DNA of 62,821 nt, counting the filler, from Globobulimina sp. (taxonomy: Eukaryota), in NCBI GenBank assembly GCA_003354225.1. It is 20 parts of 20 records of this genome, joined end to end, with 100 filler letters (N's around TTAATTAATTAA, not from the genome) between each part and the next. Parts side by side here need not be neighbours in the genome. Positions count along the whole stretch, not along the records: positions 59,778 to 62,821 come from PIVH01003908.1; 19 more parts are not named here. One strand, given 5' to 3'. Every line of letters starts with the position of its first letter. Position 1 is the stretch's first letter. Shown here one piece after another: positions 3,423-62,821 of the stretch. The notes under the pieces were generated by a model. The model saw only the letters and a program-made list of their open reading frames with translations, made no database searches and was not told the DNA's origin. The translations under genes and the position numbers were made by a program.

Positions 3423-4145
3423 TCAAGCGATATTTTTTTATGAGATGAGAATTTCTGCACAATTTCAATTCATTTTTTAGTTGAATATATTATATAATTC
3501 AATGTCCCCATCGACTCGAATACCAAATGGTCGTTGTTTATGATAGCTTGATATTTTCTGGTTTTGTGGCATAATATAAGTCGATCCGCACAAACCAGTC
3601 TGATTTCTGCACATTGTGTCCATTTCACAGATTATATTTGCGATTTCTACATCAATGTTCCGTCTTGATCTGGAAACACTCCATAAACCATAATATCTGC
3701 TTAATTATCGCTGACATGTATTCTTTTTTTAATGTAATTACGGGAATAATTACGAATTAATAAAAAAATAACTTTACTGTTTTTTCCTTCTCGTTGCATG
3801 CCATTTTGCTATACCTATAGAAATGTCGAGTCATCAAAGTTTAATTTGCCTATAGAAAATAGAAAATAGAAATTATGGATTATAGGGGTATAAAGAGACA
3901 AGTCGCAAGAAACTAAACCAAAAGAGACAAAAAGCTAAAGAGCCGCTATAGAGGAAGCAACGTTGTTGACCCATCTGTCGCGATCCAATACGTCCATTGG
4001 TCAACTCCTAAAATAGGTCCAGCATTATTTACGGCCAAGCGCTGCCTATGTTGTGGATGTAGCAGTGCGCTCACTTTTTTGTTGATTTTGTCCATTTCGG
4101 GTTATGTCGATTGAAAAGAAATTCTGTTCACACTCATTTTTTGTA

Positions 4146-4285
4146 TTTAAAATATACAGATGTGGAATTAATGGAATTAATGGAATTAAAGCGGAATTGA
4201 GAGCAAAATCAAATTATATTCTCACTAAATGTTTGAATTTTAAAATATACAGATGTGGAATTGGAATTGAATGAAGGCGGAATTG
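4146..4285 (+). repeat. Short direct repeat TTTAAAATATACAGATGTGGAATT (4146-4169, 4239-4262) with GGAATT micro-repeats
   Basis: Two 24-nt copies, each followed by GGAATT units and GCGGAATTG. Confidence 0.75.
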
Positions 4286-4573
4286 GTTTGAAATAGCTAG
4301 CAAATAAGAAATATCCAGATCAGTTTTTGTCATCTTCGTTGTTTTTGTCTCCTTCAATTCCTAACTAAACTAAATTAAATTAAGTAGTTTTCAGTTCGTG
4401 GCAGTTTTTCTCATCTTTATCATGGCAACAGGTATTTTTTAAACATTTTAGCGTTTAACATTTGTTTGTTTGTGTCAAGGTACACGATAACGATCTGAAT
4501 CTGATTTGTGGCGATTGAAGCAAACATTGAATACGAATTAATATCATAATCCGACATGATTTAACAAATATAT

Positions 4574-5734
4574 TTGCAATATCAACCAATCAAAGTGTGC
4601 CTGGAGTGCTTAGCGTACGCCGGCACCGGAAACGTGTTGAAGATCCAGAAAATGCTCGGCATTTTGGGCGAACATTTCGATGACGAATTTGAGAAAGAAT
4701 TGGAAGAGCAAAAGAAAAACAAATCGGCCGAGGAGAAGAAGGAAGAGAAGAAACAGTCTGCGGAGGAAGAGGACGACGCAAAGGACGTCAAAGAAGACGA
4801 TTATCGGTATTATCAAAGCATCGCTACTTTGGGCATCTCCATCATCGCTTTGGGCGAGGATTTGGGCTCAACGATGTCGCTGCGAATGTTTAACCATTTG
4901 ATACAATACGGCAACATTCGCGTGAAGCGGGCGGTGCCCTTAGCATTGGCCATGATGTCTGTCAGCAATCCGCGGTTGGAGATCAGCGACACTTTAAGCA
5001 AATTGTCGCACGACCACGACGACTATGTGAGCATGAACGCGATCTTCGCATTGGGCATCATCGGGGCGGGCACCAATAATGCGCGGATCGCGCGGATGTT
5101 GCGGTCATTGACGCAGTATTACCATAAGGAAGCGGACCATTTGTATATCATCCGGATCGCGCAGGGATTGATCCATTTGGGCAAAGGCTTGCTGACTATA
5201 AAATGCTTCCATTCGGACCGCTTTTTATTGTCCAAAGTGAGCATTTGCGGCATTTTGACCACGTTGTTTTGCAACATTGGCACTTCCTATCCGCCCAAAC
5301 AAAGTCCGTTGGTGAGCGAGGCGGACAAATACGTGCCGCAATGGGGCAATACGAACACCATATCGTTGGTGGGCGACTTCCATTATTTGCTGTATACATT
5401 GAATTTGTGCATCAAGCCGCGAATGTTGATCACTTTGGACGCGGCGGCATTGAAGCCATTGATCACCACTGTCCGCGTGGGCCAGGCCTTGGATACGGTG
5501 GGTGTGGCGGGCAAAAATCCAAAAAGGATTACCGGCTTTCAAACGCATGAGACGCCGATTTTGTTGCAGTATAAAGATCGGGCGGAGTTGGCATCGGATA
5601 AATATTGTTCGGTGGCGTCGGTGTTGGAGGGCTTTGCCATTTTGACCATAAATCATGATTCGGAGCAAGAGCGAAGGAAAAAGAAACGAGCTGCCAAACA
5701 GAAAAAAAATAATATGAAAAAAGAATCTGACTGA
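4574..5734 (+). CDS. RPN1: 26S proteasome regulatory subunit Rpn1/PSMD2, C-terminal part only
   Basis: AYAGTGNVLKIQ, SKLSHD, GAGTNNARIA, RIAQGL.HLGKG, VRVGQA.DTVG and ITGFQTH motifs. Confidence 0.93.
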   Translation: MQYQPIKVCLECLAYAGTGNVLKIQKMLGILGEHFDDEFEKELEEQKKNKSAEEKKEEKKQSAEEEDDAKDVKEDDYRYYQSIATLGISIIALGEDLGSTMSLRMFNHLIQYGNIRVKRAVPLALAMMSVSNPRLEISDTLSKLSHDHDDYVSMNAIFALGIIGAGTNNARIARMLRSLTQYYHKEADHLYIIRIAQGLIHLGKGLLTIKCFHSDRFLLSKVSICGILTTLFCNIGTSYPPKQSPLVSEADKYVPQWGNTNTISLVGDFHYLLYTLNLCIKPRMLITLDAAALKPLITTVRVGQALDTVGVAGKNPKRITGFQTHETPILLQYKDRAELASDKYCSVASVLEGFAILTINHDSEQERRKKKRAAKQKKNNMKKESD

Positions 5735-59777: not shown

Positions 59778-60554
59778 GACTATTTATTAAATAACAATAT
59801 CATTTTAAAAACGCAACAGGAAGACATGCAAAGATTATATGGAATCATTAAACACGAAAAAAAGGAGAGACCAACAAAGGGAAAGGACTCTTTAAAGGAA
59901 AAAGAGTTGGAAGCAATGATAAACGCAGTAAAATGTGACAAGAATATGTCACAAAGTGACAAAATCGCATGGGAGGCAATATTAACATTGCCCTATTTTG
60001 GAATAAAAAGAATATCCGAATATGTACATAATTCGGACTTATCTTTAAATTTAAACATAAACAGTTTAGAATTTGAACACGATTTAGGAAGCAATGAATT
60101 TATAAATTCAAGTCATTGCATTCTAAGCAGGAAAAAGGGAAAAACATACCAGTTTGGAGGAGATTTATTCGCCGTATTTATATGCACCTGCAAATCATCA
60201 AAATTCTGTTTTTTATGCGCAATAAAAAAATATATGATCATAAGATTAAAGACGAAAAAAGCAAAAGATTTAGCAACAGAAACACTATTTAAATTGGATA
60301 ATAACCAGATTTTAAGCAAATACACAATGGGAAAGATGATAAAAAGACTCGCAAAGGAAATAGGAATAAATCCGGACAATATCGCCGGACATAGCTGGAG
60401 AAAAGGAGGAGCACAGTGGGCAGTTAAACAGAACTTGCCAGCAACAGCAATCATGAAACAAGCTGATTGGAAATCTTTCAAATCATTAAAGACATACTAC
60501 GATAATATTGATCGTTTAGATCAAGTACAGATATTTAAAAATAGAATCAAATAA
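59778..60554 (+). CDS. Tyrosine recombinase of DIRS/Ngaro retrotransposon type (5' partial)
   Basis: Frame open from the contig edge; catalytic R (FGIKRISE), K (GKTYQFG), HxxR (GHSWRKGGA) and W/Y (ADWKSFKSLKTY). Confidence 0.88.
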   Translation, partial: DYLLNNNIILKTQQEDMQRLYGIIKHEKKERPTKGKDSLKEKELEAMINAVKCDKNMSQSDKIAWEAILTLPYFGIKRISEYVHNSDLSLNLNINSLEFEHDLGSNEFINSSHCILSRKKGKTYQFGGDLFAVFICTCKSSKFCFLCAIKKYMIIRLKTKKAKDLATETLFKLDNNQILSKYTMGKMIKRLAKEIGINPDNIAGHSWRKGGAQWAVKQNLPATAIMKQADWKSFKSLKTYYDNIDRLDQVQIFKNRIK

Positions 60555-60579
60555 AAGCATTTCATATTTAAAACAGCGA

Positions 60580-60905
60580 ATAAATCCTTGTAACGTTTGG
60601 TTGGGAAACGTTCGGTTAACGTTTGGTATATTGAAGGATTAATATTGCGGTATATACGGATCAGATGCACATAATACACATCTGAACCACCACAATATAA
60701 ATCCTAGATATCTCCGAACCTGTTACCAACCAATCGTAGGTATCAATAGATACCCAAACACACACAGTCAGTCAAATAGAATTCAGTGTTTTGTGGAACC
60801 AAAGGGGCAAAACACAAGTTCTATAGACAACGAAGTAAAAGCCCCGACTTAGCGTTTCTGAGAACAAAAGCGTTTCTCAGATATTCATAATCCATAATCC
60901 ATAAT
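60580..60905 (+). other. Highly structured non-coding spacer: ~140-nt imperfect hairpin, three smaller hairpins, possible pseudoknot
   Basis: Stems 60597-60615/60714-60733, 60635-60651/60689-60705, 60661-67/60679-85, 60739-44/60749-54, 60786-93/60808-15 and 60857-64/60874-81. Confidence 0.75.
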
Positions 60906-61004
60906 AGATATGTATGACGTATTCAGATTACACAGTTTCACATCATTCCTACCTATAATCTTTCAATTTTTTTAAATAGTCATTAGCAATTTTGCGCAAA
61001 TACA

Positions 61005-62819
61005 ATGACAAATGTAAGATTATCCAGGAAAAGGAAGCTCTTTGAGGTCGCAGAAAACGACCCATTCAAACCAGAAAATAAAAAGAAAAAACTCCTAGCA
61101 AAACACCCAACTTTCCGACGAACATCAAAAAGCAACAAAAGAACAAAACATCGATTCGCTGACTTTGAGCAAATCACTGAGAAGATCGATCAAATAAATA
61201 TGACAGATAACAACGGCGAGACAGACACAAAGAAACAAGAAGCATTGACATCGGTCAATGAATCGATTGAAACAAGAAATGAAATGATGAAGAAATCGAT
61301 ATTACGACGAAAAGAATCATGTTTAGCACGAATGAATTGCGGCAATGCCGCAGAATTATCAGATTTAGCAAATAACGAAGAAGAAAAATCAAAGAAGGCG
61401 TTCGATGGCATCAGTTCCATCGCAAAAAGAAACCGAATGAGTAAGTTATCAGAAGAATTAAATTTCGATGAATTAATATATAAATTGGCAAAAGAGAATG
61501 ATACAAAAGGTTTAGAATACGCATGCTCGAAACAAACGGCTATTTTAGCAAAGCAAGCAATGGACGAAATCGATGAATGTGACGCGATTTATAGAGATAT
61601 GGAGAAAGTGAATGCAGCGCACATTGAACTACGAAAGAATTTGGAAGAAGACGCATTAAACAAAGCGAGAAAAAATGCAAATGGCAACCAAGTATGTTTT
61701 GTTTATAACGCACATTTTTCCCGTTCTTGCCTCAAAAACTTGCACTTTTGGTAAATTTTAATGCGAATTTCCGTATATATTACGTCATAGAGACGGAAAA
61801 AGGATGTATTTTATAGAAAGGCTGAATGACAGCCGTATGTATTTTAATATATTTAGTTTGATAAGGAAGAGATGAAAGAGTTGTTTTATACGGCAACTAA
61901 GATAGCAACGCGCGAGGCGGCAATGGCTCAGACGGGCAAAAGTAAGGAAGTTTTGGATATTGAAGGGGTTGGAGAGAGCCTGAAGGAGTTAAAAAAGGAA
62001 AGCATCGAAAAATTGGTGCAAGTGCAAAAAGAGAAGATTTTAGAAAGGACAACAATGAAATGGATGAGGGAGATCCCGTACGGTAACAATTTATTAAAAA
62101 TCTTAGCATTTAGGCACGATTTAGACAAAAAGGCAAAGAGACAAAGGCCTAAAAAGATGGATTTTAACATCAAACATTTCCAAGACATGTATTTAGTATT
62201 TAGAGCAGTGATGGATATGAAAAATGAGAGTTTGTTAAAGAGAGAGGAGACTCTGTTGAATTCATTGGAATCTGTCGAAGAAATAAAGGGAATGAAGCCA
62301 GAGAAGATTTTGTATACTGCAGAGATTTTATTTTGCCTCTTGGATCATTATAAAAATGATATTGTCGGACCTTTAGATAAATTGGCAATGCATTATGTAT
62401 TGGACCATAAAACAGCGCCAGACACAGCGTTGATGGCTTTGGAGCAATTCGCAAATAAAAAACATGCGGGAATGAGCGGGATGGACATTTTGGAGATTTT
62501 AAAAATCGAATTAAGAGTCGATAAAATATTGGATCAAACGACAATTTTACAGAATTTAACAGATAAATCAGCAGCCAGTTACGCGCCAACTGGACAAAAT
62601 AACGCGAACAACAAGAAAAGGCCGCCATGTCCGAATGGAATGCAATGCCATGTATTCATGTATCCGGACGCAAGATGTTCGAATTGGCATCCTGAGGATT
62701 CAAGGGAGTATTGGAGGAGAGGAGGAGTATCAAAATTTAGTAACAATAACCAAAGAGGGAGAGGAGGATACGGCAGAGGAGGAAACCAAAGAGGTAGAGG
62801 AAGAGGATGGAGATATTAA
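61005..62819 (+). CDS. Gag-like nucleic-acid-binding protein (basic N-terminus, coiled coil, CCCH finger, RGG tail), two exons, 549 aa if spliced
   Basis: GTATGT donor at 61692 and TTTAG acceptor at 61856 join both ORFs in phase 0; CPNGMQC...C.NWH followed by RGRGGYGRGG. Confidence 0.6.
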
Positions 62820-62821
62820 AA

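Follow-up and report, generated by a model that had tools for sequence, protein, structure and literature searches.

The window analysed here, a stretch of 62,821 nt, comprises 20 unrelated contigs of ~3 kb each with N spacers between them, taken from a fragmented assembly of 48,370 contigs. Its last contig, positions 59778–62821 (PIVH01003908.1; G000:C3908, hereafter C3908), carries on the plus strand the end of a tyrosine recombinase (YR) gene, a 450-nt spacer, an open reading frame (ORF1), an intron-like gap, and a second, Gag-like frame (ORF2). The features of C3908 are as follows, where x denotes a short segment described below.

59778..60554, plus strand: YR, C-terminal 257 aa; PF00589, E 3.9e-10, over the cut-off
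60555..60624, plus strand: 3′ UTR segment containing two AACG-x-x-TGG motifs and the 5′ arm of a long hairpin
60593..60737, plus strand: long nested hairpin over the 3′ untranslated stretch and repeat B; RNA z −4.8
60625..60781, plus strand: repeat B, right terminal repeat, located after x in solo units and at right ends
60780..60782, plus strand: B/A crossover core (AA/AAT), end-to-start junction, located by host joins
60780..60973, plus strand: repeat A, left terminal repeat, with a T run at its end; homology to C36416 and C17639 stops there
61005..61691, plus strand: ORF1, putative leader exon, 229 codons, ending at a phase-0 GT
61692..61856, plus strand: putative spliceosomal intron, 165 nt, GT/AG ends conserved in phase
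61857..62819, plus strand: Gag-like ORF2, 320 aa, with a Cys/His cluster and an RGG tail

An earlier note on this DNA placed the end of the YR frame at 60554, which is borne out by the PF00589 match and by the conserved catalytic residues; these (R, K, H-x-x-R, W, and Y) are invariant among eight aligned copies. The contig boundary cuts off the 5′ part of the C3908 YR (257 of ~355 aa remain), whose start is found on neighbouring contigs. Compared as a profile with solved structures, the YR has its best matches to Cre (E 2e-4), and the nearest YR clusters are eukaryotic proteins without names; none of 20 related proteins looked up is named either. The YR family has 44 matches among 70 candidates scored. 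Reading frames and a Pfam scan of the contig agree with the earlier note that no reverse transcriptase (RT) lies on C3908. The uniform A-rich strand bias that it described is not seen: AT skew ranges from −0.12 to 0.42 depending on the part (YR 0.29, spacer 0.11, ORF1 0.42, gap −0.12, ORF2 0.25).

The Gag-like reading frame was said to begin 450 nt after the YR. The next ATG is indeed at 61005 on the same strand, but the coding region consists of two frames, 61005–61754 and 61857–62819. ORF2 is 54–61% identical to two other copies and is a putative Gag by its position, Cys/His cluster, and RGG tail. A Pfam scan of ORF1 and ORF2 returned no match, zf-CCCH is a weak lead for the Gag-like frame (score 0.90, 141 shared features), and structure prediction gave no usable model (pLDDT 43.7). 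The Gag-like frame has seven matches on six contigs, three of which also carry RT and RNase H (RT-RH); this refutes a single-copy host gene. Within the putative gag intron, short conserved blocks and inverted repeats occur at 61740–61800 of the window and at 900–1080 of L018 (G000:C363), although the intron varies in length.

We find that the spacer is structured, as had been proposed. It folds beyond shuffles as DNA (z −6.0, 0/100), and as RNA none of 200 shuffles of 60585–60780 folds as well (z −4.8). In the long hairpin, 60593–60607 pairs with 60723–60737. The AACG-x-x-TGG motifs downstream of the YR are kept in 13 aligned copies. Consensus folding of 13 B regions across families gave no pairs in a gappy alignment, and x-B segments fold unevenly (z −0.5, −2.1, and −3.7).

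Foreign DNA meets the spacer at a single point from both sides, and the 450 nt are therefore read as repeat B followed by repeat A. In C293 and C36416, foreign DNA enters exactly at the equivalent of 60780. In run X1 (public contigs of one study, possibly of the source sample), loose letters precede 60780 in three contigs, and in one a stretch of 115 follows 60781. Run X1 yielded no joints, and its contigs are not an independent line of evidence; runs X2 and X3 contributed zero and one contig. The entire spacer is thus element repeat, and the earlier observation that no host DNA lies between the YR and the Gag-like gene stands. Repeat A is ~190 nt long, and repeat B is 109–157 nt in intact cases. 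Downstream of repeat A comes either ORF1 or x, a conserved segment of 60–90 nt with a TTCG hairpin that lies between a second copy of A (A2) and a second copy of B (B2). The x motif is kept across families with YRs only ~35% identical (seven matches, control 0).

Ten left joins have 2–7 nt of A/T core in common with the B/A junction. One solo unit, in C9792, sits within the YR gene of another element and has a TATAA core at both ends. We show that integration is a crossover in a short A/T core (2–5 nt) at the B/A junction, as would be expected if the YR acted on a circular donor.

The alternative ends of the element were surveyed in 23 A-bearing contigs, drawn from two A-start motif searches (16 and 7 matches, controls 0) plus C8652 and L093, and classed by eye from their flanks. 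Foreign DNA followed by A and ORF1 occurs in six of the 23, and foreign DNA followed by A and then the contig end in two. Five are solo units (foreign-A-x-B) and two are full right ends (YR-B-A-x-B-foreign). The order YR-B-A-ORF1 is found in six, C3908 included. One contig has 5 nt of B preceding A-ORF1, and one runs YR-B-A to the contig end. Outside the 23, three contigs read YR-B-foreign with no A.

These ends bear on whether the order on C3908 defines a new class of element in which the recombinase comes first (YR, spacer, gag, RT). The order on C3908, taken alone, suits such a class, and the position of the YR is variable in VIPER and TATE, so that it can evidently shift. However, foreign DNA joins precisely within the spacer from both sides, and no host join between RT-RH and YR was seen in contigs holding both. 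Six contigs start foreign-A-ORF1, and five run through YR and B and then exit to foreign DNA. These contigs refute the recombinase-first class that the earlier note had entertained, and we regard it as almost certainly wrong.

The missing RT is found by following C3908 at both ends. Its last 119 nt are exactly the first 119 nt of C5604, which codes for RT and RNase H (RVT_1, E 6.8e-7) and then the YR start, and its first 119 nt are the end of C17439, which holds the end of RNase H and the YR start. Extension as the earlier note had advised thus leads to RT/RNase H after 62821 and back to the YR. C5604 and C17439 derive from separate copies with 86% identity, and the path C17439–C3908–C5604 leaves a gap of 77 nt on the scale of C17439, for a unit of ~5636 nt. 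The RT family has at least 66 matches among 166 candidates (66 scored). Gag, RT-RH, and YR lie in this order on one strand in C363, C509, C708, and the C3908 overlap path. No methyltransferase was detected in two RT-RH frames, nor in the 78 long ones scanned among 150 relatives listed. None of 95 candidate stretches in viral contigs and one of 95 in metagenome contigs proved to be a relative.

Three further structures were observed in related contigs. Between RT-RH and YR, L018 carries at 4301–4474 a direct repeat of 81 nt with 96% identity and a period of 93 nt. L002 (G000:C13194, 1–1682) has an internal deletion that fuses ORF1 and the start of the gap to the C-terminal part of the YR. L035 (G000:C17817, 1–1369) is a self-closing, YR-only unit of 1250 nt with no A or B repeat, whose closure joins the 3′ UTR to the region upstream of the YR acceptor.

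Taken together, C3908 almost certainly reads through the B/A junction of a multicopy YR retrotransposon, and its gene order is only seemingly permuted. With similarly high confidence, we give the integrated form as A1-ORF1-gag-RT/RNase H-YR-B1-A2-x-B2, with no methyltransferase. The split direct repeats were pieced together at family level, no one contig having both element ends, and the right end of the C3908 subfamily itself was not found among the contigs examined.

The earlier note read the contig as the end-to-start junction of a circular intermediate or of a head-to-tail array. The junction itself is there, but C3908 alone is no evidence of a circular intermediate, because a B/A junction (B1/A2) lies inside every integrated element with split direct repeats. 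Moreover, in an integrated element A2 continues to x-B2, and a full circle keeps x. A join that runs YR-B-A-gag without the x-B tail is therefore not a full-length transposition circle, and it needs either a real loss of the tail or an assembly jump from A2 to A1.

We judge it an even call that YR-B-A-ORF1 is real DNA, that is, a one-repeat ring or a head-to-tail unit of ~5.6 kb; the contigs fit ring and tandem alike. A ring or tandem lacking x would arise if A1 recombined with A2 (or the internal B1/A2 junction with the left end), leaving the solo A-x-B unit as its reciprocal product. Such a ring would be a by-product resembling a 1-LTR circle, not a full-length transposition intermediate. 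Several observations favour an x-less ring or tandem. Both predicted excision scars, solo A-x-B and YR-B-host, are present. In a population consisting wholly of integrated copies, the exits from A to x and from A to ORF1 are equally deep, and de Bruijn assembly would be expected to stop where A stops. Six contigs, drawn from several families, nevertheless run unbroken past this point, which favours the x-less form insofar as assemblers behave in this way. Whole units in three other families (C363, C509, and L093) close on themselves by 119 nt, without x, and the self-closure of L093, with its cut inside the RT and no surviving branch at A or B, points the same way. So does the finding that, among 12 matches, there is no host-to-A contig near-identical to the A of C3908.

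Assembly collapse would produce the same contigs from integrated copies (A1-body-B1-A2-x-B2) only, if the assembler entered A2 and exited via an identical A1. The 119-nt overlap is exceeded by repeat A (~190 nt) and approached or exceeded by B (109–157 nt). Full right ends occur only in C7314 and C20521, and both have diverged B copies (longest exact match 95 and 31 nt), as collapse of young copies predicts. The assembly is fragmented, short x-bearing contigs were perhaps lost to a length filter, and self-closure is non-specific, since one of the 19 other contigs of the window also closes, on host genes. In run X1, where no single listed piece covers the whole stretch, summed depth (which is not copy number) peaks on A at 97 and 51 versus 4–36, and this peak suits many A copies without a body. 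However, collapse requires that an x branch as deep as the gag branch was lost in six contigs of several families, and that all host branches were lost in L093, C584, C8652, and C3908. We place collapse somewhat below an even chance. A self-closing contig within the window, G000:C3890 (3150–6198), closes by 119 nt and has a multicopy repeat at ~3760–4590; it also contains what we take to be the C-terminal part of a proteasome Rpn1-like frame, and a minus-strand frame runs across its join.

Another explanation is that full-length circular intermediates or full-element tandems exist and that the assembler shortened their B-A-x-B-A repeat. Shared-core junctions suit a circular donor, and integration at the other B/A copy would account for the YR-B-host ends of three contigs. 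Circles are also the model for this order in the available portions of two papers (PMC3266345, PMC7192593). Yet x is absent from all six permuted contigs, and x-B-A-ORF1 does not occur among the seven x matches. The accessible part of the DIRS-1 study likewise describes extrachromosomal cDNA that is mostly linear and single-stranded, with no junction recovered by inverse PCR (PMC7192593). We therefore consider full-length circles improbable, and the x-less ring or tandem remains our preferred reading.

Splicing from ORF1 as a leader exon probably gives access to gag, RT-RH, and YR, judging from frames and splice-site motifs. A phase-0 GT (61692) closes ORF1, and a phase-0 AG (61856) directly precedes ORF2; the GT and AG of the gap are in phase in C363 and C17639 too, where its length and sequence vary. 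For RT, 11 of 12 loci were anchorable and all 11 have an in-phase AG that ends 9 or 18 nt upstream of the anchor codon, with an in-frame stop at most 20 codons upstream in 9 of the 11; for YR, 17 of 19 loci were anchored and 13 have a motif that we take to be branch-point-like, with the next AG in phase in 13/13, no ATG there in eight, and an ATG in five. These RT and YR counts come from related copies, with analyst-chosen anchors and no shuffle control. Introns or splicing in DIRS/Ngaro elements were not described in the literature searched, mainly outside subscription papers; introns in fungal YR retrotransposons were reportedly noted in 2004.

Some further observations concern comparable sequences. 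The RT-RH relatives P0006 and P0009, from other public contigs, have an intron-like, unconserved N-terminal stretch that ends in Gln before the conserved start. A probable in-frame host intron of 57 nt lies at ~2056–2112 of L019 (G000:C293); it opens with GTTAT and closes with an A/C-rich ACAG, resembling the acceptors of the element. In L096 (G000:C6429), two ubiquitin domains each stand directly before C-F-x-x-G-T, a motif presumably similar to that with which a Hint (intein-like) domain begins.

A broader proposal is that the element's own YR may cut it at B1/A2 into a body ring of 5.5–6 kb and an A-x-B mini-ring of 0.4 kb, both reinsertable as DNA, with alternative splicing from one leader exon in the same lineage. 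All four products predicted by such cutting are present in the assembly, and one mini-unit, inside another element's YR gene, has a duplicated target core. As a whole, we hold this proposal to be unlikely.

The permuted order is accounted for as the end-to-start junction of a Ngaro-type element. What remains of note is the base-exact crossover site, the four end structures, x-less rings or tandems at even chance, and a putative splicing plan. Circular DNA is assumed for YR retrotransposons and has proved difficult to capture: the DIRS-1 cDNA was predominantly linear and its junction resisted amplification, according to the part of the study available (PMC7192593). With a junction located to the base and four kinds of ends, the C3908 family makes ring formation, and YR activity on the B/A site, directly testable. 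If the rings are real, the permuted contigs would be the first record in sequence data of rings of this kind from a Ngaro-type element. If the join is an assembly collapse, then short-read assembly can make elements with split direct repeats look recombinase-first or circular. Should the splice-acceptor pattern be real, it would be a mode of RT and YR expression for which we found no description in the order DIRS.

Judged by its predicted architecture, the element is of Ngaro type, with the corresponding structural features present at family level. Ngaro elements have gag, RT/RH, and YR, A1-B1-A2-B2 repeats, and no methyltransferase, in the portions seen of three sources (PMC3783388, PMC4157794, PMC9210276). 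The C3908 family is similar in having a Gag-like gene, RT/RH, and YR on one strand, intact YR catalytic residues, no methyltransferase, and a length of ~6 kb. Its split repeats (~190 and 109–157 nt) compare with the 236 and 152 bp given for Xenopus DIRS-53_XT in the available part of PMC9210276. The solo A-x-B units likewise recall the solo AB units that the accessible text of PMC8547959 reports in Cafeteria burkhardae, which carries Ngaro types 1–4. Unlike Ngaro, the family has segment x (with its TTCG hairpin) between A2 and B2, non-overlapping frames that start at putative in-phase splice acceptors, and no hydrolase ORF; x-less head-to-tail joins and YR-B-host ends are also common in this assembly. 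DIRS/Ngaro elements in Rhizaria or foraminifera, and circles or rings of Ngaro, did not appear in the literature searched, mainly outside subscription papers, reviews, and supplements.

Other YR elements fit less well. PAT-like elements (PAT, TOC1/TOC3, kangaroo) share split direct repeats with the C3908 family, and in TOC1 the right-hand repeats are separated by a short piece of unique sequence. According to the part of PMC4157794 available, a methyltransferase follows RNase H in PAT-like elements; its absence in the C3908 family rejects this identity. DIRS1-like elements have a short A/T end-to-start core, most often AAT in DIRS1 according to the excerpt of PMC3266345, compared with AA/AAT here. 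Unlike them, the C3908 family lacks both inverted terminal repeats and an internal complementary region: whole-unit self-comparison found no long inverted repeats, the ends are direct repeats, and a DIRS1-like identity is rejected. The absence of a methyltransferase is a further difference.

The kinetoplastid VIPER/TATE elements have split direct repeats and no methyltransferase, as in the C3908 family. Their YR lies between gag and RT/RH, whereas that of the C3908 family comes last, and this identity too is rejected. Tandem copies and assembly trouble have been reported for TATE in the available part of PMC6681497. A Crypton (YR without reverse transcriptase) is rejected by the exact overlap that ties RT/RH to C3908. 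In LTR retrotransposons, recombination between direct repeats gives a ring (the 1-LTR circle) and a solo LTR scar, much like the proposed ring and its solo A-x-B scar. Unlike a 1-LTR circle, the proposed ring would retain its recombinase together with an intact crossover junction, and so could in principle reinsert.
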